This document shows, one piece after another, positions 1 to 16,628 of a stretch of 24,000 bases of DNA. The notes under the pieces are model-generated. The model saw only the letters and a program-made list of their open reading frames with translations, did not search any database and had not been told where the DNA came from. Position numbers and translations under genes: made by a program. The DNA comes from Tissierella sp. Yu-01 (GTDB taxonomy: Bacteria; Bacillota; Clostridia; Tissierellales; Tissierellaceae), in contig NZ_CP120677.1 of NCBI RefSeq assembly GCF_029537395.1, positions 2,108,566 to 2,132,565 of the forward strand, in the 5' to 3' direction. Numbering within the stretch: the first letter of the stretch is position 1; the number at the start of each line of letters is the position of its first letter.

Positions 1-312
1 ACCTTTTTCAATCAATGTAGCTTTTAATTCATCTCTTAATTTCAAGCCTTCTTTAATAGATGCAAAGAATCTATCTTTATCAAAGTTTGCATTTGTAATT
101 GTCATAAATAAACCGTCTATTATAAATCTATCTAAACCAGGCATATTATATCCGATTTCATCAGCTTTAACGCCTAGAACAGAAATACCTTTTAATGTAT
201 AAATCATTAAGTCTTGTAAATTTGCTACTTCGCTTGTCTTACCACATACTCCAACTTTTGTACAACCTTTACCGCCAGCTGTTTCCTGGCATTGATAACA
301 AAACATACTCAT
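1..312 (-). CDS. hcp: Hybrid-cluster protein / hydroxylamine reductase, N-terminal 104 codons (gene runs off the window start)
   Basis: Hand translation of the minus strand from ATG at 312: [69 protein letters not shown]... The N-terminal Cys cluster [15 protein letters not shown] is the recognisable Hcp (prismane) signature. RBS AAGAGGAGGA is the complement of 321-330. It is absent from the ORF track. Confidence 0.85.
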
Positions 313-377: not shown

Positions 378-393
378 GGTAACATGTGTTACC
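378..393. promoter_or_regulatory. Perfect 16-bp palindrome GGTAAC-ATGT-GTTACC, candidate CRP/FNR-family (HcpR-type) operator upstream of hcp
   Basis: Seen directly. On the minus strand exactly 21 nt separate the palindrome from a TATAAT hexamer (...GTTACC gacatatgtcaagtaagacta TATAAT). That geometry fits a class-II (about -41.5) activator site. A second copy of the same palindrome lies at 6083-6098. Confidence 0.55.
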
Positions 394-627: not shown

Positions 628-2625
628 ATGACAATAAAAAAGAAGTTACTATTATCATCAAGTTTGCTAATCTTATTAGCATTTACTATTATTTTTATAT
701 TTGTTTTAACACAATTTATACAAAGTAATGAAAGGGAAGAATTTAAGTATCTAGATACTTTATCAACTTCCATAATGATGGATTTACAGACGCAGATGGA
801 CAATACTCTAATATCAGTTAAAAGTATGGCAAATAATCCTGACATACAAAGACTTTTTTATGAGCGTAATCGTGAAGGTCTTTCGGATTTATTACTACCT
901 GTATATGAAACAATTAAATCCGAGGTAGCACAATTTCAATTTCACTTACCTGACTCAACATCATTTCTTAGGCTTCATAGTCCAGCTAAATTTGGAGATT
1001 CCTTAAAGGACTTTAGAATCACTGTTAACACAGCTAACGAACAATTAGTTGATGCTATAGGTATTGAAGAGGGTGTTGCAGGATATGGTTTAAGAGTAGT
1101 TGTACCTATGTTTTATCAAGACCAGCACATCGGCTCAGTAGAGTATGGAAATGATTTTGGCACAAATTATGTGAATAATATTAAAGAAAAATTCGGACTT
1201 GAGAATTTTCTATATAGATATCCTTCAGACAATGTAGATGGTAATTCACTTTTAGCTTCAACAATGGAAAATGATGAATACCTGATAAGTGATGAAAATT
1301 ATAATAAGATCCAATTGGGTGAACCAATATTTGAAGTTACCAGGGATCCGAACATTGGTATACTACTGATACCAAATGCTGACTTTCAAGGCGAAATTAC
1401 TTCATATACAAAATTAATTATTGATCGTTCAGAAGTTGTAGCGAGCGCTAAAAACATGAGTACAAATCTATTTGTAATTTTCTTTATTTCACTAATTCTA
1501 ATGGTATTATTATTAAGTACTCTCTTGAATTTTAATGTTTTCAAGCCTATAGCCGCTGTTACTGCTATTATTAATAAACAATCCAATTTAGATTTTACAT
1601 TTGATGAAAAATCTGAGATGTCAAAATATATAAAGCGTGCAGATGAAATTGGTATAATGTCCACAGCTTTATATAAAATGAAAAACAGCGTTAGAGAATT
1701 TATTATTAAAACCTCTGATACCTCAGAGTTAGTTGCAGCTTCAGCAGAAGAGCTTAATGCAACTTCTCAACAATCTGCCATTGCATCAAATGAAGTTGCC
1801 AAAGCAATCGAAGAGATTGCAAATGGTGCAAGTGAACAAGCTAGAGATGCAGAAGTTTCCTTTTCTAATGTAGAAGATATGGAAACATTACTTGAAAAGA
1901 ATAGACAGTTTCTTGATGAACTAAATAATGCAACAGATAACATTAATAATCAAAAAGAAGCAGGATTTCAAATCCTTAAAGAATTAATACAAAAGACAAA
2001 TCAAAACAATGAAGCGTCTCAAATAGTTTATGAAACTATAGTTAAGAATAATGAAAGTGCTGAAAAAATTGAAGCTGCGAGTGAAATGATTAATAGTATT
2101 TCTGATCAAACCAATCTTTTAGCTCTAAATGCAGCCATAGAAGCTGCTAGAGCCGGTGAATCTGGTAAAGGATTCGCTGTAGTAGCAGAAGAAATAAGAA
2201 AGCTTGCAGAACAGTCGAATAGCTTTACTAATGATATAAAAGTAGTAATAGAAGAGCTTAAATCCAATTCTCAAAATTTATTCGGCAAAGTACAAGAAGT
2301 AGCGTCTATAGTGGATTCTCAAACAGAAAGCGTAAAAGAAACAGAGACAAAATTTATTTTGATAGCTGAAGCAATAGATTTAGTAAGATCAGTTATAGAG
2401 AAGCTTAATGACTCGGAAAAATTAATAAGTGAAAATAAAACTACTCTGTTGAATAATATACAGAATTCAACCTTAATCTCAGAAGAAAACGCAGCAGGAA
2501 CACAAGAAGCTTCAGCTTCCGTAGAAGAATTATCAGCAAATATTGTAGAGATATCTAATTCTAGTGAAGGATTAGCTAGTATAGCAGAAGATTTGCAAAT
2601 ACTGATACAGCAATTTAAGATTTAA
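628..2625 (+). CDS. Methyl-accepting chemotaxis protein (N-terminal TM, extracytoplasmic Cache-like sensor, second TM, HAMP, MCP signalling domain)
   Basis: 665-aa ORF. Two hydrophobic segments (about res 7-29 and 289-311) flank a roughly 250-aa sensor region. The C-terminus carries the conserved MCP hairpin motif [49 protein letters not shown] lies upstream. An extended -10 TGaTATAAT sits at 587-595. Confidence 0.92.
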
Positions 2626-2633
2626 TTAAATTA

Positions 2634-2656
2634 GCCCCCAACCTTTGGTTGGGGGC
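2634..2656. terminator. GC-rich hairpin terminator between convergent genes
   Basis: GCCCCCAACC-ttt-GGTTGGGGGC is a perfect 10-bp stem, followed by GTTTATT on the plus strand. It lies 8 nt after the MCP stop and 5 nt beyond the stop of the convergent minus-strand gene. Confidence 0.8.
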
Positions 2657-2661
2657 GTTTA

Positions 2662-2904
2662 TTAATAATCTATTCCTGCTGCCTTGATTCTTTCTGGATA
2701 GTTAACTGAACAAGGTGTTACTCCATATACCATATTGCAATGTGGACATTTTGTCTCTAAATGAGTCATTTCAAACTCCTCATCACATTCAATACATTTT
2801 ACCTTAACTCCTGGCGGCATAGGTCTAGTATTAAATCCCATCATTCTTATTTTATCTACTACTTGTTTTCCATCTCCAAAACTTCCTGTACAACCATCAT
2901 GCAT
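2662..2904 (-). CDS. Small zinc-ribbon protein (80 aa), unknown function
   Basis: The ORF track gives 2662..2937. I prefer the internal ATG at 2904 (MHDGCTGSF...) because AAGGAGGA sits 7 nt upstream of it. Two CxxC pairs (CIEC ... CPHC) suggest a zinc ribbon. Confidence 0.55.
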   Translation of the reverse strand: MHDGCTGSFGDGKQVVDKIRMMGFNTRPMPPGVKVKCIECDEEFEMTHLETKCPHCNMVYGVTPCSVNYPERIKAAGIDY

Positions 2905-2959: not shown

Positions 2960-3040
2960 CCTGCAAGGTCATAAACTCGAGATTCCTCGACTACGCTCGG
3001 AATGACAGAAAGCTGTCATCCTGAGACGGACAGTATAATC
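2960..3040. repeat. REP-like structured intergenic element containing the cgctcggaatgac / gtcatcctgag motif
   Basis: Seen: ...gattcctcgactacgctcggAATGACAGaaagCTGTCATcctgagacgg... forms a 7-9 bp hairpin with no U-tract. This sequence type (translating as ..LDYARNDRK..) is familiar to me as a small dispersed repeat in many bacterial genomes. Only one copy is present in this window. Confidence 0.3.
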
Positions 3041-3062: not shown

Positions 3063-4070
3063 TTAGTTATTCACTGATTTAAGTTGCTTTCCTGCTCTCA
3101 AGTCACTTCTCATACCTTGAATAATTGAATCCATCTTTTCTAATTCAGTTAATATGGATTTCTCTTCTTTACTTGTTTCAATTATCTTAGATATTCCACC
3201 ATTTTTAATTACAATTCTCTTATCTGCAATTAATGCTAATGTTGGGTCATGAGTAGCCATTAGAACTATCTTATCCTTGCTGACTAATAGGTCTAAAGCT
3301 TTCTTTCTATCTATACCTGCGTTTTCTATTTCATCTATAAGTACTATAGGTGATGAACTTAAAATGGCAGTATCTGCAATCATCAATGCTCTTGACTGAC
3401 CACCACTTAATGCAGTTACAGGTGTATCTAGATCAAACTTCTCACCAGCTAAATTATTGGCTGCTTCTATTATTTTCTGTGTAGTTTCTTCTACATCTTC
3501 AACTAATCTACTTTGAGCATGTAGTTCTAAGAACTCCTTTACAGTTAAATCCATTACAAAGTTCATATTTTGTGATAATTGTGCTACAAGCTTATTATTA
3601 GATGAGAATCTCCATTTCATATCTGGAACTTCTCCATTAATTAGTATAGTTCTACCAGTTGGTGTATCATTTTGAGCTGTCCATTCTATATCTGCTAGGA
3701 GCCTACTCTTACCTGAACCTGTAGGACCTACAATGGATATAATCTCAGATTTATTAATGATAAATTCCTTAAACCCCTCAGAATTCTTTGATTTATCATG
3801 GCCTGGTAGAATTGTTAAGGATTCAATCCCTACTTCATCCTTTATACCTAAAAATTCTTTCATTTGATTTATAAAAGCTTCAAGATCATCTTTTAATCTA
3901 TCTTTATCAATAGCCCAATCTTCAATATCTTCCTCAGAAAAATGATTTAGATACTCATCGAAAGTTTTTTCCTCGAAACCTCTTACATCAAGCTTATTAT
4001 CTTCAAAGTACGTCTCAACAAAAGGATATTTATTAATTAATTCATTAATAGTTAGATTATTCATAGTCAT
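3063..4070 (-). CDS. ABC-type ATPase (single nucleotide-binding domain) with an N-terminal extension of about 100 aa; no cognate permease nearby
   Basis: Walker A GPTGSGKS, signature LSGGQ, Walker B LIDEIE and H-loop ATHD are all present. The start is ambiguous (GTG 4073, ATG 4070, ATG 4064) and overlaps the stop of the upstream gene, implying translational coupling. Confidence 0.85.
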   Translation of the reverse strand: MTMNNLTINELINKYPFVETYFEDNKLDVRGFEEKTFDEYLNHFSEEDIEDWAIDKDRLKDDLEAFINQMKEFLGIKDEVGIESLTILPGHDKSKNSEGFKEFIINKSEIISIVGPTGSGKSRLLADIEWTAQNDTPTGRTILINGEVPDMKWRFSSNNKLVAQLSQNMNFVMDLTVKEFLELHAQSRLVEDVEETTQKIIEAANNLAGEKFDLDTPVTALSGGQSRALMIADTAILSSSPIVLIDEIENAGIDRKKALDLLVSKDKIVLMATHDPTLALIADKRIVIKNGGISKIIETSKEEKSILTELEKMDSIIQGMRSDLRAGKQLKSVNN

Positions 4071-4758
4071 CACCTAAATCCATCTTTCTTACATTACCCA
4101 TTTGGAAAGCTTCACCTATTCTCGTTTCACCAAGACAGTAAGAACACATTGCAGCAGGCATTGGGAATCTTAACTCCATACCTTGAACTGAATCAATGTC
4201 CTTCTCCTTATCAATTAGTAATGTACTTAGCTCAAATGCTCCTTGTCCAGTTAAACCATTAATATGGATTGTCATGGCTCTAGGATTTACAGAGCTTACC
4301 TTAGAAGCAAACACTTCTCTTTCAGCCTGGGAAACTATATCCCCTTTAGTAATGACTACAATATCAGCTGATTTTAACATCGGACCAATTTTCTTAGGTG
4401 TATTTATACCTGATAAATTATCTATAACACATACACCCTTGATTTCCTTAATATAAGGTGAACATCTATTACAAAGACCCGCCGATTCGGTTATTAACAA
4501 ATCTAAACCTAATTTTAAACCCCATTGTACAACTTCTTCAATATTAGATGCGAAGAAATGATCTGGACATAGGGCTCCTGATAAACCTTTCTTTACTGGT
4601 ATACCTGCCTTCTCATATAAAATATCATCATCTGTATAAAGGCAATCAAATTTTACTACACCTACTGAAATATTTCTTTGTTTTAGTGCATCTATTGTTT
4701 TTAATATAATTGAGGTCTTTCCTGATGAAGGAGGACCTGAAAATACTACTAAATTCAT
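4057..4758 (-). CDS. G3E-family (HypB/UreG/CobW-like) P-loop GTPase, putative metallochaperone
   Basis: 233-aa ORF with P-loop GPPSSGKT, an ESAGL switch-like motif followed by CNRCSP, and a TKGD (NKxD-type) specificity motif. Additional Cys pairs are present (CPDH, and a C-terminal CSYC). RBS AGGAGGAAAG lies upstream. Confidence 0.75.
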   Translation of the reverse strand: MNLVVFSGPPSSGKTSIILKTIDALKQRNISVGVVKFDCLYTDDDILYEKAGIPVKKGLSGALCPDHFFASNIEEVVQWGLKLGLDLLITESAGLCNRCSPYIKEIKGVCVIDNLSGINTPKKIGPMLKSADIVVITKGDIVSQAEREVFASKVSSVNPRAMTIHINGLTGQGAFELSTLLIDKEKDIDSVQGMELRFPMPAAMCSYCLGETRIGEAFQMGNVRKMDLGDDYE

Positions 4759-4770
4759 TTGTCTTTCCTC

Positions 4771-6009
4771 CTAAATAGCATCATGAAATAACTTTTCACT
4801 TTTTCTAATTAAACTTCCAATATCATTGTTATTTATATAATCCCAGCCAAGCCACATGAATTTTTGATCTTTCTCCAATCCATTATCAACCTCTGGATGT
4901 GTTGATGGGAAATGTCCATTTGATGAAAGTATCTCTCCAACTTCCTTAGAGAAAAAGAAATCAACAAATCTTTTTGTCCTTTCTTTACTAGATTTCTTAG
5001 AAAGAAGAAATATAGGGCTAATAATTGCTCCATCCTCTGGCCAAACAGTCTTTAGGGGGCTGTTACCTCTTGCCATCTTTGTAAAGAAATATGGCATAAT
5101 AGTTATGGCCGGTATCCCTGAGTTAGTTCTCTTAGTAGGTGACTTAACCATTTCAGCTGGATGCATACTTCTTAGAAGATTTCTACCTAAGCTTGTTATT
5201 CCGTCTTCACCATATCTTTGATGAAGGTGCAATAACAGTGCATTAAATAAATCTAAATCTCTCATTGGAAGTGATATAGAAGACTCAAATTCTGGTTTTA
5301 ATAAATCTTCCCAAGACTTAGGCATTTCTCTACCATTAAGCTCATCTACATTAACCATAAATACCGCTGGAACAACACCAATTATAGAGTATTGCTTTAA
5401 TGGGTCCTTCAAATCTATATAGTCATTATCGAAATCCTTATTTAATTTTTCTAGACCTGTAATATCTTCAAATACTCCTAATTCCTTGTATTTGCCCATT
5501 AACTCCTTATCAAAGAACAAGTCAAAACCTGCAGACATAAATAAATCTGATAAATCATCTGGATTACCAGTCTTTATTCTATCAACAATCCAGTCTAGAC
5601 CTAGATTAGCTGATTTTAATTCATAGTTTACAGTAAATCCAAAGCTATCCTTATTCTGATCCATCCAAGCATTGAATCCTTCTAATAAAGGTATCCTTAT
5701 GGGACATGGTAGTACTCCGTCTATTCTTATATCTCCGTCAATCTCCTGTTTTGATGCTGCCAATGCTTCATCTACTGAAACTCTATTTTGTTCTATTGAT
5801 TCAACTAATTTTTGTTCAAATAGTTCAAGGTTAACTTTCTTAGTTTTACATGCCATTTCAAGTGATATAGTCTTACCCATAAGCTTTCTCATCTTCTCAT
5901 TAGCAAGTTGTTCAAAACCGTTAGCTACAAATATACCCAATGTTTCTGGATATTTCTCTGTTATGTCAAATACTTTATCCTTTATATCAAAATATTTGTT
6001 CATGCCCAT
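4771..6009 (-). CDS. Fusion protein: N-terminal DUF1858 (hybrid-cluster-protein-associated domain) plus a periplasmic-binding-protein-like (ABC substrate-binding fold) domain, with no signal peptide
   Basis: Residues about 5-75 (FDIKDKVFDITEKYPETLGIFVANGFEQLANEKMRKLMGKTISLEMACKTKKVNLELF) look like DUF1858/ScdA_N. The remainder resembles class-II solute-binding proteins. There is no hydrophobic leader or lipobox. An alternative start is ATG 6003. Confidence 0.7.
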   Translation of the reverse strand: MGMNKYFDIKDKVFDITEKYPETLGIFVANGFEQLANEKMRKLMGKTISLEMACKTKKVNLELFEQKLVESIEQNRVSVDEALAASKQEIDGDIRIDGVLPCPIRIPLLEGFNAWMDQNKDSFGFTVNYELKSANLGLDWIVDRIKTGNPDDLSDLFMSAGFDLFFDKELMGKYKELGVFEDITGLEKLNKDFDNDYIDLKDPLKQYSIIGVVPAVFMVNVDELNGREMPKSWEDLLKPEFESSISLPMRDLDLFNALLLHLHQRYGEDGITSLGRNLLRSMHPAEMVKSPTKRTNSGIPAITIMPYFFTKMARGNSPLKTVWPEDGAIISPIFLLSKKSSKERTKRFVDFFFSKEVGEILSSNGHFPSTHPEVDNGLEKDQKFMWLGWDYINNNDIGSLIRKSEKLFHDAI

Positions 6010-6082
6010 CCTCCAATTTCTCCTTTTAAAATAATCCCGACTTATTTACTATATTATAATACAATAAAAGAAAAAAATAGTC

Positions 6083-6098
6083 GGTAACCAATGTTACC
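6083..6098. promoter_or_regulatory. Second perfect palindrome GGTAAC-CAAT-GTTACC, candidate HcpR-type operator for the 6009..3063 operon
   Basis: The half-sites and the 5' flank (gTCGGTAAC) match those at 378-393. On the minus strand it lies 21-24 nt upstream of TGTATTATAAT (-10) and about 80 nt upstream of the start codon. Confidence 0.55.
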
Positions 6099-6200: not shown

Positions 6201-6440
6201 ATGTTTACTACAATTCAAAAGTGGGGTAATAGTCAAGCCGTTAGAATACCTAAGGCTATTCTAGAAATGGCTAATCTAAGGGAAAATGACAATGTAGAAT
6301 TAAGAGTTCATGAAGGCAATCTACTAATTATTCCTGTTAAAAAACATAAATCCCTAGAGCAACGAATTGCCGAATATGAAGGAGAATACCATTGTAGCGA
6401 ATGGGAAACTAGTGATCCTATAGGAAAAGAGGTACTATAA
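6201..6440 (+). CDS. mazE: MazE/PemI-type antitoxin (AbrB/SpoVT swapped-hairpin fold)
   Basis: The sequence MFTTIQKWGNSQAVRIPKAILEMANL... carries the classic KWGNS.A.RIP antitoxin motif. RBS GAGAGGTGA lies upstream. The stop overlaps the toxin start (TAATG). Confidence 0.9.
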   Translation: MFTTIQKWGNSQAVRIPKAILEMANLRENDNVELRVHEGNLLIIPVKKHKSLEQRIAEYEGEYHCSEWETSDPIGKEVL

Positions 6441-6772
6441 TGACATATATTCCAGAACAAGGAGATATTATATTTATAGAATTTAATCCTCAGGTCGGGC
6501 ATGAGCAAAAAGGTAAAAGACCGGCCTTAGTTGTAAGTAATTACACATTTAACAAATTCACTAAATTGGCAATGCTATGCCCAATTACCAATACGGATAG
6601 AAGCTTTCCTTTGCATGTTAAACTAGATGAAAGAACGAAAACTACAGGAGTCATCATGTGTGAACAGGTAAAATCCCTAGATTACAATGCCAGAGCAATA
6701 TCCTTTTATGAAAGATCACCAGAAGATATAGTAGCAGAAGTTAAAGATGTTTTACTTGGATTCATTGAATAA
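6440..6772 (+). CDS. mazF: MazF/PemK-type endoribonuclease toxin
   Basis: 110 aa: YIPEQGDIIFIEFNPQVGHEQKGKRPALVVS...CPIT...DQVKSLDY-like motifs align by eye with E. coli MazF/ChpB. Confidence 0.9.
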   Translation: MTYIPEQGDIIFIEFNPQVGHEQKGKRPALVVSNYTFNKFTKLAMLCPITNTDRSFPLHVKLDERTKTTGVIMCEQVKSLDYNARAISFYERSPEDIVAEVKDVLLGFIE

Positions 6773-6839
6773 TCATAGTTCCTAGAATTCGTTGCTTATG
6801 GAAATATTGGGGTATAATAAATTCCAAAGGAGTGATTTT

Positions 6840-7226
6840 ATGGAGATAACCTATGAAAAGTCAACGACTAAACTATTTGATGAAGCTATAGAAAGTATCA
6901 AGAAAGAACTTCAGGAAAGAAAATTTGGTGTACTTTGGGAATTAAACTTCAAAGAAAAACTTGCAGAGCATGGAATAGAATTTAAAAATAATTTTAAGAT
7001 TTTGGAAGTTTGTAATCCTCAAAAGGCTAATGAAGTTTTATCAAAACATATTGAGGTTGGATATCTTCTTCCATGTAAAATGGTAGTATATGAAAATGAA
7101 GGAAAAGTATTTATAGGAACTGCAAAACCTGAAAAGCTAATGGGAATGATGGGATATGCTGATCTAAGCAATATAGCTTCTGAAGTTGAGTGGATTTTAA
7201 TTGAAGCTATTGACGCAGCAGTATAA
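6840..7226 (+). CDS. DUF302 domain protein
   Basis: The ORF track starts at TTG 6792. ATG 6840 is preferred because AAGGAG lies 8 nt upstream. Size (128 aa) and motifs (FGVLWELNF...ILEVCNPQKA...LLPCKMVVYE) fit DUF302. Confidence 0.7.
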   Translation: MEITYEKSTTKLFDEAIESIKKELQERKFGVLWELNFKEKLAEHGIEFKNNFKILEVCNPQKANEVLSKHIEVGYLLPCKMVVYENEGKVFIGTAKPEKLMGMMGYADLSNIASEVEWILIEAIDAAV

Positions 7227-8975: not shown

Positions 8976-9218
8976 CTATTCGTTAGCAAAGTTTTTTGTT
9001 ATTGAAACCCTCCATACTTCAGGACCTTCCTCAAGGTATTCCCAGTTGAAGAAACCTTCTCTTTCAGCTTGGAATTGATAATATAATGGCTTTGGATCAT
9101 GGTCGTTTATCAATTCCATCTTTTCACCTTTGCCAAGGGAATCAAATGTTTCAAAAATTACTCTATGTTTATCTACTGGCTTATATTCTCTAGCATCAAC
9201 TGTTTTTGCAAATACCAT
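8976..9218 (-). CDS. DUF2249 domain protein
   Basis: 80 aa. The stretch ...HRVIFETFDSLGKGEKMELINDHDPKPLYYQFQAEREGFFNWEYLEEGPEVWRVSITK matches the DUF2249 pattern as I recall it (..G..l.l..dHdP.PL...l.......w.y...gP..w.v.i.k). RBS AAAGGAG lies upstream. Confidence 0.7.
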   Translation of the reverse strand: MVFAKTVDAREYKPVDKHRVIFETFDSLGKGEKMELINDHDPKPLYYQFQAEREGFFNWEYLEEGPEVWRVSITKNFANE

Positions 9219-9558: not shown

Positions 9559-10143
9559 TTATATGGTAGTTATTGTAACCTCATTACTTAGTTTCATATT
9601 TATTGCAATAGCCATCAATGAACAAGCTATCACAAAAAATGCTCTATATTCCTGTCCAAAAACTAATAGTAGAATTTCCAAAAATAAGACCAAGGTAATA
9701 ATTTCGTTTTTCTTTCTACTACACCTTTCTATTTCACTGGCTGTTTTAGGTCTGTTTATATTAACTATTGAATCTGTTAGATATATTTTGATGACAGAAT
9801 AAATTAGAGAAATTATTCCTATTATCAGTTGCATTTGCTTTGAAAATATTATCGCAGGAACTATAATAAGTATGTATACCAGCATTGTTAACATCAGGCA
9901 TTTACCATATGTTTTACAGTGGAATCCCCCCGTATATCTTTTTACAGATATAAAAACCACCATAAATATAATGGTAAACTCTATAGTTTCTAGTAAAGTT
10001 CCTGCGAGTAATAGCAACAATATAGTAATTAGATTATTTAACAGTAATTCTAATCCATAGGAACATATATCAATATCTTCCTTTTCTATTATCTGATTTT
10101 GTTCTAATAAAAAAACTATGCTATTTATAAGTTTCTTTAGCAT
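9559..10143 (-). CDS. agrB: AgrB-family membrane endopeptidase (AgrD-processing enzyme)
   Basis: 194-aa polytopic protein. The motif VKRYTGGFHCKTYGKC carries the conserved R..GG.H-x6-C catalytic His/Cys pair with the same 7-residue spacing as S. aureus AgrB H77/C84. RBS AAGGAGG lies upstream. Confidence 0.88.
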   Translation of the reverse strand: MLKKLINSIVFLLEQNQIIEKEDIDICSYGLELLLNNLITILLLLLAGTLLETIEFTIIFMVVFISVKRYTGGFHCKTYGKCLMLTMLVYILIIVPAIIFSKQMQLIIGIISLIYSVIKIYLTDSIVNINRPKTASEIERCSRKKNEIITLVLFLEILLLVFGQEYRAFFVIACSLMAIAINMKLSNEVTITTI

Positions 10144-14568: not shown

Positions 14569-14601
14569 GTTAAACTGGTAGGTTTTTTGGTTAAACTGGC
14601 A
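14569..14601 (-). promoter_or_regulatory. LytTR-type direct-repeat boxes (copy D) upstream of agrD2; the distal box overlaps the agrC stop codon
   Basis: GTTAAACTGGTA-ggttttttg-GTTAAACTGGC with a 21-bp period. The last agrC codons ..TTG CCA GTT TAA are themselves the distal box. The extended -10 TGcTATGCT is conserved downstream. Confidence 0.65.
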
Positions 14602-15913
14602 ATTCACCATTCAATGATACAGCCATATATAATTTAAACTCTTCATTTAAGACCTCATGATCAATAAATCCGTTATATTTATTTGCTACATCTTCTAAAA
14701 TAAATAGACCATATCCATGGCTATCTTTATCTTTCTTAGATGTAATCCCCCTACGAATTTGTACATCCTTGTTGATACTATTACTTATTTCAAAATTAAG
14801 ATAATCCTTCTTAGGGTTAATAACTATTTCTATCCTTCTCTTAGATTTGTCCTCTATCTTTAAACATGCCTCTATGGCATTATCTATGCTATTAAAGAGC
14901 AGGGAGCTAAAATCCGGTGGATTTATTGGAATATCAGGAGGAATCACTGCTTTTACTTTAAAGGCTATATCATTGTTTACAGCTTCAATTCTCTTTTGAT
15001 TTAAAACCATATCTGCTATTTCATTTCCTGTTCTTATGGTTATAGGAAAGTTATCCATATTCTCTATGATTACGTTGATATACTCATTTATTCTATTATT
15101 TGAACTAGTGGATGCCAGATTCTTAATATTTGCTAGATGATTGTTGATGTCATGTCTTATTTTCCTTATTTCTAAATTTGTCTCCTGATTCATTTTTAAA
15201 TATCTTCCTGTAGCCTTGTAGTGCATATCTAATATTGCTCTTTCTTTTTGTTTGATATAATGTTTGTTTAACTCTGTTAAAAACAGATATACCACCCCAT
15301 TTATAAATAGGAAGGTACCACTGATAAAAATCAAAAGAATATCTAAGCCTTCTACCTCACCAGCTACTCTATTTAGATCAAACAAAAATATCATGCTAAT
15401 AGCTGATATCATATAAATTAGCCATACAAAAAGATTGTATTTTCTGGGTAGAATATTTTTATGAGGCTTTACATACTCCGCTATTATTTTTATCAACTTA
15501 TATTTAATCAACTTAACAATAAGTCCTGTTATTAGTCTAGCTGTTCCGTGCAATAAAACCATTTCAGCAGCAGGTATTTTAAATATAAATCTTAGTAGAT
15601 TCATTGTCAGGATTTCAGCTGCTATTTGGATAAGATTAAATATCAGATTATAGAATATCTTATCATTCAAATTACCTTTAAAAAGTAAAGAATATACAAA
15701 ATATATACTAACTCCAATTACCATCCTATAGGATTGTCTAATTTCTAGGATTGTCAGTACAAAAACTACTATAGAAATTAAAAATGACAAAACAACATAT
15801 ACTTTTAACTTTATTTTTTCATTTAGTCCTAATATATGTTTAAAAAACATAGTAAATAATATGGCTTCTACAAAACACCAAAAATACTCAAATCCTAAAT
15901 AAAAATGTTCCAT
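14591..15913 (-). CDS. agrC: AgrC-like (HPK10 family) membrane sensor histidine kinase
   Basis: The N-terminal half of about 200 aa has 6-7 hydrophobic segments. H-box IRKIRHDINNHLANI, N-box LLFNSIDNAIEA and G-box SHGYGLFILEDV are present. There is no HAMP or PAS domain. Confidence 0.85.
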   Translation of the reverse strand: MEHFYLGFEYFWCFVEAILFTMFFKHILGLNEKIKLKVYVVLSFLISIVVFVLTILEIRQSYRMVIGVSIYFVYSLLFKGNLNDKIFYNLIFNLIQIAAEILTMNLLRFIFKIPAAEMVLLHGTARLITGLIVKLIKYKLIKIIAEYVKPHKNILPRKYNLFVWLIYMISAISMIFLFDLNRVAGEVEGLDILLIFISGTFLFINGVVYLFLTELNKHYIKQKERAILDMHYKATGRYLKMNQETNLEIRKIRHDINNHLANIKNLASTSSNNRINEYINVIIENMDNFPITIRTGNEIADMVLNQKRIEAVNNDIAFKVKAVIPPDIPINPPDFSSLLFNSIDNAIEACLKIEDKSKRRIEIVINPKKDYLNFEISNSINKDVQIRRGITSKKDKDSHGYGLFILEDVANKYNGFIDHEVLNEEFKLYMAVSLNGELPV

Positions 15914-15923
15914 CCTGTCCCTC

Positions 15924-16628
15924 CTATGAAGTAAAAAAGGCCTTTTTTACTTCAGATATCTTATATCTTGAAACCTGTAATACTTCCCCATTGTCTAGCT
16001 CAATGGTTTCCTTGTCTATCCTCTTTACAAAGTTAATGTTAACCATCATCCCCCTATAGATACTAACAAATCCTTTACTGGAGACTACTTTTTCTATTTC
16101 TTTGAAAACTGTTATAGTAGTTATATATGTATCTGTTAACGTTCTGATATTGACCCTTCTATTAACCATGTTAAAGTAAAGAATTTCTGAAATTGCCAAT
16201 TTTATAGTTCCTTCTTTTGTTTTAAACTCATATCTTGTACTATTTTCTTGTAACCTTTTTAAAATGTCTTCTAAAACTGCATATATTTCTTCATCAAAAT
16301 ATGATTTCCTGATAAATCTAAAAGTATTAAGTTCAAAGACCTTATATACTTCCTCATCTAAAGAAGTTAAAAATATAAGTATAAAATTATTATCTATTTC
16401 CCTAATTACCCTTGCTGCTTTGATGCCATTCAATCTTGGCATATCTATATCGAAAAATATCACATCATACCCAATACCATTACGTTTTGCTTCTCTAACT
16501 ATTTCTTCCCCATTGTTATATTCATCAATATCAACTTTATTTTGATTATCCCTAAAAAAGGAATTAACTTTTAATCTTAATCTCTCCATAAAAATATTAT
16601 CATCCTCACAAATTGCAACTTTTACCAT
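15924..16628 (-). CDS. agrA: AgrA-like response regulator (REC plus LytTR DNA-binding domain)
   Basis: REC motifs are present (VAICEDD, FFDIDMPRLNG). The C-terminal region of about 100 aa has the LytTR pattern (..ISEILYFNMVNRRVNIRT...FVSIYRGMMVNINFVKRID...LQVSRYK). RBS AAGGAGGGG lies upstream. An extended -10 TGaTATAAT is the complement of 16675-16683. Confidence 0.88.
   Translation of the reverse strand: MVKVAICEDDNIFMERLRLKVNSFFRDNQNKVDIDEYNNGEEIVREAKRNGIGYDVIFFDIDMPRLNGIKAARVIREIDNNFILIFLTSLDEEVYKVFELNTFRFIRKSYFDEEIYAVLEDILKRLQENSTRYEFKTKEGTIKLAISEILYFNMVNRRVNIRTLTDTYITTITVFKEIEKVVSSKGFVSIYRGMMVNINFVKRIDKETIELDNGEVLQVSRYKISEVKKAFFTS

Follow-up and report, generated by a model that had tools for sequence, protein, structure and literature searches.

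A permease-less operon of a binding-fold protein, a G3E GTPase and an ABC ATPase in Tissierella sp. Yu-01, a candidate metallochaperone system linked to hcp

What is the function of an operon that resembles part of an importer, with a solute-binding fold and an ATP-binding cassette (ABC) ATPase, if it has no permease and a GTPase between the two? This question is raised by a 24,000-nucleotide (nt) stretch of the genome of Tissierella sp. Yu-01 (hereafter, the window, in whose numbering all coordinates are given). Four genes run in the same direction on its minus strand, from 6009 to 2662, and encode a protein that joins a DUF1858 domain to a solute-binding protein (SBP) domain of the SBP_bac_6 family (hereafter, the binding protein), a G3E GTPase, a single ABC ATPase and a small zinc-ribbon protein (ZNR). 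The original prediction, made from the sequence alone, described an operon of three proteins and overlooked the ZNR gene. We propose that the products form a cytoplasmic, permease-less, nucleotide-driven metallochaperone complex within the nitric oxide (NO)/nitrite (HcpR) regulon, which would load or reload metal into the hybrid cluster protein Hcp, or into similarly labile Fe-S enzymes, under nitrosative stress; we give this reading about an even chance of being right. The composition of the operon, its cytoplasmic location, the conservation of ligand positions, the synteny with hcp and the operator common to both are features of the locus and its relatives; complex formation, cargo, client and direction of transfer are what we infer.

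The first three genes (hereafter, the trio) occurred in the same order in all 80 genome loci that we compared (L001–L080; Tissierellia, Lachnospiraceae including Lacrimispora, Hungatella and Anaerocolumna, Oscillibacter, Pelosinus of the Negativicutes, and others), complete in 77 and cut by contig ends in three. Because the same three genes keep the same order in these loci and in distant relatives, the arrangement is far beyond chance. Identity to the window proteins across the loci was 59–90% for the binding protein, 64–88% for the ATPase and 79–97% for the GTPase. The junctions in the window are as tight as the original prediction stated, with a gap of 12 nt between the binding protein and GTPase genes and an overlap of 8–17 nt between the GTPase and ATPase genes; the ZNR gene, which follows the trio in 43 of the 80 loci, lies behind a spacer of 158 nt and has a strong ribosome-binding site (AAGGAGG) upstream.

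The proteins of the operon

Pfam searches confirmed both domains that had been read in the binding protein: DUF1858 (PF08984) at residues 9–64 (E 5e-17, 62.2 bits against a cut-off of 32.2) and SBP_bac_6 (PF13343) at residues 151–395 (E 1.2e-85, 287.3 bits against 24.6). Neither its sequence nor its hydropathy profile contained a signal peptide, a lipobox or a transmembrane segment, in agreement with the original prediction. The maximum Kyte–Doolittle 19-residue mean of the binding protein was 1.25 and did not exceed 1.5 in any of the four operon proteins, compared with 2.97 in a neighboring methyl-accepting chemotaxis protein (MCP) that served as the positive control. Nothing in its hydrophilic N-terminus suggested an exported or lipid-anchored protein; in an AlphaFold model (pLDDT 82.7), which comprises a helical N-domain, a long helix and a two-lobe binding fold, the N-terminus folds as the helical DUF1858 domain. 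Short members of the family that lack DUF1858 begin just ahead of strand 1 of this fold (the LPCP strand) and have no leader. By its sequence, then, the binding protein is cytoplasmic.

These observations bear on the reading that gene names would suggest, a conventional ABC importer with its permease gene at another place in the genome and a binding protein exported by an unrecognized route. That reading has in its favor the annotation of the first protein as "ABC transporter substrate-binding protein" or "ABC-type Fe3+ transport system" and the classical Pfam families to which it belongs. It has to contend with a folded helical domain where the signal peptide should be, with the leaderless short members, and with a G3E GTPase wedged between binding protein and ATPase under translational coupling. 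It also has to contend with the missing permease: no importer permease gene (BPD_transp or FecCD) was present in the window, and none was tied to the trio in 78 close loci. The tight same-strand operon contained no membrane-protein gene in 64 of these 78 loci, and in the other 14 it included an upstream full-length ABC exporter pair with its own nucleotide-binding domains (NBDs), or the transporter ChrA, but never an importer permease. With the leader absent, the permease absent and a GTPase inside the operon, we rejected a conventional importer, which we consider very improbable, and the earlier statement that this is not a transporter layout holds.

The closest solved folds of the binding protein in a Foldseek search (E ~1e-13) were P5PA, FutA/IdiA, FbpA, AfuA and PotD; ModA was not among the top 50 matches. 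Across 122 family representatives at 50% clustering, the best-kept features were LPCP with Cys102, P231-x-W233, H283-P284, MPYF and WPxDGA. The LPCP motif was kept in at least 80% of the representatives, and Cys102 was invariant. This cysteine directly follows strand 1 of the binding fold, presumably the position at which ferric-binding proteins carry a metal ligand. More than 2,500 relatives were found in the protein collection, all named generically, the best match (90% identity) being from "Firmicutes bacterium FC7"; the clade is Tissierella-like.

The second protein had been called a HypB/UreG/CobW-like GTPase with several Cys pairs, and it scored 43.7 bits with the corresponding Pfam family (PF02492, cut-off 20.7) and contained two CxxC pairs. 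It carries the P-loop GPPSSGKT, an ExxG motif (E91-S-A-G94) and TKGD, all at least 90% conserved, and G3E proteins are recognized by a Walker A motif GxxxxGK[ST], by Glu in place of Asp in G3 (ExxG) and by a G4 motif of the NKxD type (PMC9164220, PMC11672702). Nearly every column of the protein was at least 90% conserved across the related loci, and conservation extended to all of cysteines 39, 64, 96, 99, 110, 205 and 208, four of which form the pairs C96xxC99 and C205xxC208. In phmmer alignments with solved structures, C64-P-D-H67 aligned with the CPH and CH metal motifs of UreG and HypB, C64 and H67 falling on C95-H96 of M. jannaschii HypB and C96/C99 on the G3-loop cysteine in ENVGNLICP. 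The equivalent residues of UreG and HypB form a nucleotide-coupled Ni/Zn site at the dimer interface (PMC11672702).

Membership in the established subfamilies, in contrast to these shared motifs, was not found. The HypB equivalog models scored 51.5 bits against a cut-off of 121.2 (TIGR00073) and 21.5 against 385 (NF007775), the UreG model 25.6 against 204.2 (TIGR00101), and the UreG motif is present as the variant C-P-D-H. Proteins of COG0523 are defined by a CxCC motif and a C-terminal CobW_C domain, in a scheme that divides the G3E superfamily into four subfamilies (PMC9164220); the operon GTPase has LCNRC instead, no CobW_C match and a score of 16.4 bits against 332 with TIGR02475. No hyp or hydrogenase genes were found in the window or among the conserved neighbors of the 80 loci, and no ure genes were found nearby. 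Since the protein fits none of the four subfamilies, it looks, from its sequence, like a separate branch of the G3E superfamily. A link to selenoproteins was also considered and dropped: the DUF1858 and CobW-like selenoproteins of selenium reviews are other proteins, there is no in-frame TGA, and NF041053 gave only a weak P-loop match.

The ATPase was correctly described as having a single NBD behind an extension of about 100 residues. ABC_tran matched residues 104–248, with intact and conserved Walker A (GPTGSGKS), LSGGQ, Walker B (IVLIDE) and H-loop (ATHD) motifs, and every NCBIfam ABC subfamily model scored far below its cut-off. The extension itself, which the original prediction took to be novel, is not a new domain. 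It had no Pfam match, but a profile of the N-terminal 100 residues aligned with the DUF1858 profile of the binding protein in hhalign (probability 95.6%, E 1.3e-8, 67 columns, residues ~5–72), and we therefore regard it as a divergent relative of DUF1858 rather than a scored member. The presence of DUF1858-type domains on both the binding protein and the ATPase suggests a plausible docking device in place of a membrane domain.

ZNR has 446 homologs, nearly all of exactly 80 amino acids (aa). Invariant among 33 ZNR sequences were M1, H2, C5, C37xxC40-x12-C53xxC56 and C65, and residue 3 was D or E. HypA combines an N-terminal Met-His-Glu metal motif with a CxxC-x12/13-CxxC zinc site, and ZNR has both elements. 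We nevertheless rejected ZNR as a true HypA: its best member reached E 4.9e-5 with the Pfam HypA family, all members stayed below the 28.9-bit cut-off and aligned in the zinc-ribbon part only, a Foldseek search against the PDB returned no match at E ≤ 0.001 and hence no HypA, and a profile search against the PDB returned generic zinc ribbons only. What we retained is a motif-level analogy.

Predicted HcpR operators and the neighborhood of hcp

The link to nitrosative stress begins with the operator upstream of the binding protein gene, which the original prediction called hcp-type. It is a GTAAC-N4-GTTAC palindrome that matches perfectly the HcpR2 consensus GTAACnnnnGTTAC, a motif obtained from the sequences ahead of hcp in Clostridia, Bacteroides, Thermotogales and Treponema (Rodionov et al. 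2005, PMC1274295). The window contains a second perfect site (Table 1), which is explained by the 5' end of hcp itself, a gene that the original prediction did not report and that leaves the window at its left edge on the minus strand; the operon and hcp thus each have their own operator. At up to one mismatch the window had three consensus sites where 0.5 would be expected, a number that was not reached in any of 100 shuffles. The center of the operon's operator lies ~41–45 nt upstream of the likely transcription start, placed from a TATAAT at 6053–6058 (minus strand), and that of the hcp operator ~41.5 nt from its inferred start, so that both predicted operators would occupy the class II position for CRP/FNR activators.

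Related loci repeated this pattern. In 47 of the 76 loci that could be tested, a perfect GTAAC-N4-GTTAC site, the spacer of which varied freely, lay within 150 nt upstream of the binding protein gene, and of 90 perfect sites in 1.3 Mb of related loci, 82 preceded either the trio (48) or hcp (34). As the operator stands directly ahead of the binding protein gene (in L035 at −77, just upstream), it lies downstream of any exporter or ChrA neighbor in the loci that have one. Another 20 loci (among Lachnospiraceae and Oscillibacter, L042–L080) that lack the GTAAC-N4-GTTAC site had a different conserved palindrome, GTTGT-N4-ACAAC, at the equivalent position (−90 to −109), where a regulator of the CRP/FNR type with changed specificity probably binds. 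Altered motifs, of the HcpR2-variant kind, have been described in some Clostridia (Rodionov et al. 2005, PMC1274295). Neither the window nor the conserved neighbor clusters of the related loci contained a CRP/FNR (hcpR) gene.

Gene order points in the same direction as the operators. In 36 of the 80 loci, hcp (Prismane, E 1.7e-181) was directly downstream of the trio on the same strand, and in a genome of another lineage (L088) the order was Rrf2 – cupin – DUF1858-SBP – cobW – ABC – ZNR – cupin – hcp in a single string, so that the hcp-tied module there adjoins a regulator gene of the Rrf2 family, which includes NsrR. These patterns sustain the association with hcp and nitrosative stress made in the original prediction, at the level of genome comparison; responsiveness of the operon to nitric oxide or nitrite is predicted from its operator.

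Other recurrent neighbors of the trio were DUF2249, DUF302, DJ-1/PfpI, Dps with superoxide dismutase (SOD), sufCBDS, a divergent FecCD-type importer, ChrA, glutamate–cysteine ligase and a CDF transporter. Among them, Dps with SOD, sufCBDS, the iron-type FecCD importer, DUF2249 and DUF302 fit iron or redox stress. DUF302 was directly upstream of the trio in ten related loci and DUF2249 in nine. DUF1858 and DUF2249 proteins belong to NO and denitrification regulons of Bradyrhizobium and Thermus; in Thermus, DUF2249 is tied to nitrate/NO regulons (DrpA/DrpB).

The recurrence of DUF1858 and DUF2249 in such regulons would also suit a device that senses or sequesters rather than delivers, binding nitrite, hydroxylamine, dinitrosyl-iron or free iron, with the NTPases buffering the ligand or signaling, for example, to HcpR or to chemotaxis. 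The MCP gene between operon and hcp agrees with this, as do the cytoplasmic binding-fold domains that serve as regulators in ATPases of the NrtC/CmpC type; CmpC chains were among the matches of the ATPase NBD. Yet a UreG/HypB-type metal site and a complete NBD are hallmarks of metal transfer and mechanical work, not of signaling, no output domain is present in the proteins, and the paralogs described below lie in biosynthetic and uptake clusters instead of regulatory ones. We judge a sensing role to be improbable.

The features of the locus are listed in Table 1. The binding protein probably starts at the ATG at 6003 (410 aa), since homologs of 410 aa begin with MNKYF and a GGAGG lies 6 nt before this ATG. 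The terminator closes both the operon and the convergent MCP gene.

Table 1 Features of the operon and its surroundings in the window
Feature	Position	Strand	Basis or remark
DUF1858 + SBP_bac_6 binding protein, 412 aa as called	4771–6009	-	Pfam
G3E GTPase, 233 aa	4057–4758	-	Pfam PF02492 above cut-off
Single-NBD ABC ATPase with DUF1858-like N-domain, 336 aa	3063–4073	-	Pfam ABC_tran and hhalign
Zinc-ribbon protein ZNR, 80 aa, starts MHDGC	2662–2904	-	sequence
HcpR2-type operator of the operon, GTAAC-N4-GTTAC palindrome GTAACCAATGTTAC	6084–6097		perfect match to consensus
Second HcpR2-type operator, overlapping the -35 region of the hcp promoter	379–392		perfect match to consensus
Bidirectional intrinsic terminator	2634–2656		10-bp perfect stem, 8 G-C pairs, then T-rich tail
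hcp, 5' part (hybrid cluster protein), exits window at left edge	1–312	-	translation; Pfam Prismane E 6.7e-22
dCache_3 MCP gene	628–2625	+	between operon and hcp
Inverted repeat, 13-nt arms (CTCGGAATGACAG / CTGTCATCCTGAG)	2996–3025		ATPase–ZNR spacer; no T-run behind
mazE/mazF (PemK) type II toxin–antitoxin pair	6201–6772	+	divergent, just upstream of operon promoter region
DUF302 gene	6792–7226	+	
DUF2249 gene	8976–9218	-	
agr-like quorum-sensing set (AgrB, GHKL histidine kinase, LytTR response regulator)	9559–10143, 14591–16628	-	

Several further features of the surroundings were recorded. The inverted repeat in the ATPase–ZNR spacer could be an RNA processing or stability element. Near this hairpin lies TTGTGAACTGTGAAT, which is single-copy in the window and also occurs upstream of the trio in L011. 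The hcp operator is 236 nt upstream of the MCP gene start, in the intergenic region common to both genes, by virtue of which the MCP might also respond to HcpR. No HcpR2 site lies ahead of the DUF302 or DUF2249 gene of the window. The agr-like set and the toxin–antitoxin pair appear to be insertions when the window is compared with L001, its closest relative; there, FtsH, DUF2249 and the trio are closer together, and an unclustered minus-strand open reading frame (ORF) lies between the ZNR gene and hcp.

Paralogous trios beside molybdenum and nitrogenase genes

We surveyed the wider family with an exhaustive HMMER search of 1.84 billion cluster representatives, which yielded 649 clusters at E ≤ 1e-3 and 168 at E ≤ 1e-30. 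Five distant members could be traced to contigs long enough to show their neighbors. In three of the five, the trio was followed by ferredoxin-like or C_GCAxxG_C_C proteins and, in one of these three, also by modE-modD-modABC; a fourth, the genome L088 described above, had the trio together with ZNR and hcp; and the fifth was inside a TonB/FecCD importer operon beside nifH-like genes. No permease was tied to the trio in four of these five loci. In the fifth, as in some loci of the mod/nif-linked clade, a FecCD or ModB permease was nearby but formed part of a complete importer with its own binding protein and ATPase. Over more than 150 related loci in all, no importer permease belonging to the trio was seen. 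Trios of the paralogous kind, without DUF1858, were present in L081, L084 and L086/L087, the last with modE-modD-modABC after the trio.

A metagenome scan seeded with the short subfamily, which lacks DUF1858, retrieved 80 loci (L090–L169). By strict ORF calls, the short-type trio was contiguous in 40 of 69 testable loci, and true contiguity is higher than this figure because an antisense ORF artifact masks some GTPase genes. Surrounding sequence of more than 8 kb was available for 51 loci, of which 25 contained ModA, ModB, ModE, ModD and/or NifH, NifEN/DK, NifX, NifV and NifB, confirmed by Pfam; frequent orders were trio-modE-modD-modABC and modAB-trio-x-nifV. Neither hcp nor the ZNR gene was present in loci of the mod/nif clade. 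Compared with the window proteins, the paralogous GTPase was ~62% identical and retained every Cys and His, the ATPase was ~52% identical and retained its N-terminal extension, and the binding protein was only ~30% identical. The far stronger conservation of the GTPase relative to its partners, across bacterial orders as well as in these paralogs, suggests many simultaneous interaction constraints and is unusual for a G3E chaperone. The family thus looks like a constant engine of two NTPases combined with a binding protein that can be swapped, positioned beside enzymes of complex metalloclusters, and the paralogs embedded among mod and nif genes indicate that the family may be a general, cargo-specific engine for metal or oxyanion trafficking rather than one specifically for Fe-S repair. 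By gene context, the mod/nif-linked trio could be a molybdenum-trafficking system for the synthesis of the FeMo-cofactor.

Alternatively, the operon in the window may, like these paralogs, be an engine for an oxyanion-derived metal, molybdenum or tungsten, supplying a molybdoenzyme under nitrogen-oxide stress (an N-hydroxylamine/nitrite reductase of the MOSC type or a nitrate reductase), with Hcp merely co-regulated. The contiguity of paralogous trios with modE-modD-modABC, including those of L086/L087, and with nifV, nifX, nifEN and nifB, supports this idea, as does the retention of all GTPase ligands between the clades; in the window's own clade, the oxyanion transporter ChrA was directly upstream in ~10 loci and MOSC and MoaD-like genes were upstream in four. 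The divergence of the binding proteins, however, suggests different cargo, and the closest folds of the window's binding protein are binders of ferric iron or phosphate esters, with ModA outside the top 50 matches. The absence of ZNR and hcp sets the mod/nif clade apart, and within the window's clade the 36 loci with hcp as a neighbor far outnumber the ~4–5 with molybdenum-related genes. On balance we consider a molybdenum or tungsten cargo for the operon in the window unlikely, though it is the main rival reading.

A broader proposal would accommodate both clades. The SBP–G3E–ABC trio may represent an unrecognized class of soluble "inverted transporter" in which cargo is captured in the cytoplasm, an ABC dimer and a fifth G3E branch drive it into complex metalloclusters, and the variable binding protein sets cargo and client; the hcp-linked form would then be the first dedicated assembly or repair factor of the hybrid [4Fe-2S-2O] cluster, and the mod/nif-linked form would be the molybdenum donor that is still missing from FeMo-cofactor synthesis in diazotrophs without NifQ. 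We offer this generalization tentatively, and it may well prove wrong. The probability that remains falls to functions outside the readings given here.

Proposed mechanism and comparison with known systems

In the metallochaperone reading that we prefer, HcpR would activate the operon and hcp from operators at the class II position. The binding-fold protein would take cargo into its cleft, where the invariant Cys102 would stand at the metal-ligand position, and the cargo would be a metal ion, most plausibly iron. The G3E dimer would hold the metal at an interface Cys/His site (C64, H67, C96/C99) and release it upon GTP hydrolysis in the manner of HypB and UreG, with ZNR, through its MH(D/E)GC motif, as a possible HypA-like hand-over partner. 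Driven by ATP, the ABC ATPase dimer would clamp a soluble partner in place of a membrane domain, and the DUF1858 domain of the binding protein and the DUF1858-like domain of the ATPase would give the docking otherwise given by a permease.

Several observations weigh against this mechanism. Hcp of E. coli and Desulfovibrio is not known to need such genes for its maturation, which rules out a universal Hcp maturase. Adjacent hcp is lacking in ~40% of the loci (Lachnospiraceae, Oscillibacter), and these have a different palindrome. The binding protein shares only 12–18% identity with ferric-binding proteins, the likeness of ZNR to HypA stays at the level of motifs and does not extend to family membership, and paralogs beside molybdate-uptake genes indicate that the cargo need not be iron.

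Nucleotide-dependent assembly of metallocenters is a known kind of process, but we found no characterized precedent for the architecture seen here, which combines an SBP fold in the cytoplasm, an ABC ATPase without a permease, what appears to be a new G3E branch and common DUF1858-type domains. The four proteins go unnamed in the curated NCBIfam models, their source names are generic, and literature searches on the system found no description, as the original prediction had anticipated. Hcp is central to the detoxification of NO and hydroxylamine in anaerobes, gut and oral bacteria among them, and its hybrid cluster has no known accessory factor for assembly or repair; the operon provides a concrete and widely conserved candidate for this role, with thousands of homologs across Tissierellia, Lachnospiraceae, Oscillispiraceae and Negativicutes. 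If the proposal is true, the G3E metallochaperones, with four known subfamilies, would gain a new branch and new partners, and an ABC ATPase and a solute-binding fold would be seen to cooperate without a membrane. The paralogs make testable a long-standing question, namely by what route molybdenum enters nitrogenase cofactor synthesis in many anaerobic diazotrophs. For thousands of genes, the present label "ABC transporter substrate-binding protein" or "Fe3+ transport system" is probably incorrect.

Known systems resemble the operon in parts. The cluster-D SBPs, including the ferric-binding proteins FbpA and FutA/IdiA as well as AfuA, PotD and P5PA, have the same fold and the same Pfam family, SBP_bac_6; unlike the ferric-binding proteins, the operon protein is cytoplasmic, carries an N-terminal DUF1858 domain in place of a leader, has an invariant Cys where they use His and Tyr ligands, and is encoded in operons in which no permease was found. 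RIC proteins (YtfE, ScdA) presumably consist of an N-terminal ScdA_N domain related to DUF1858 and an iron-binding domain; if so, their architecture is analogous, except that the operon protein has a periplasmic-type binding fold instead of the hemerythrin-like di-iron domain and is accompanied by two NTPases. In many bacteria, YtfE/RIC/ScdA are induced together with hcp by nitrosative stress (PMC1274295), as the operator predicts for the operon.

The CooC/CooT/CooJ system for maturation of Ni-CO dehydrogenase invites comparison because Hcp, the candidate client, shares its Pfam family (Prismane/CO dehydrogenase) with carbon monoxide dehydrogenase (CODH), the heterometal cluster of which requires a SIMIBI-class NTPase for its completion (PMC9164220). 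The idea of an NTPase that completes an unusual Fe-S-based cluster would be analogous; CooC, however, is a MinD-type ATPase with a deviant Walker A motif and not a G3E protein, and the Coo system has neither a binding-fold protein nor an ABC ATPase. The hybrid cluster of Hcp, moreover, contains no nickel. Precedents for ABC-type NBDs that act on soluble complexes without a membrane domain are SufC, in the SufBC2D complex of Fe-S assembly, and PhnK/PhnL of C-P lyase, and in a few loci the trio adjoins sufCBDS. Unlike SufC, the operon ATPase has a DUF1858-like N-domain, is paired with a binding-fold protein and a GTPase, and has no SufC model among its best NCBIfam matches; the operon contains no partner of the SufB/SufD kind.

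The nickel-insertion systems HypA/HypB of [NiFe]-hydrogenase and UreE/F/D/G of urease are similar in having a G3E GTPase with ExxG, TKGD or NKxD, and a Cys-(Pro)-His motif and G3-loop Cys at the interface Ni/Zn positions (PMC11672702). The operon GTPase differs from HypB and UreG in its additional conserved C39, C110 and C205xxC208 and in scores far below the equivalog cut-offs, and its partners are a binding-fold protein and an ABC ATPase. We know of no such partners in the Hyp and Ure systems. What ZNR adds to the likeness is a second parallel with HypA itself, an N-terminal Met-His-acidic motif followed by CxxC-x12-CxxC.

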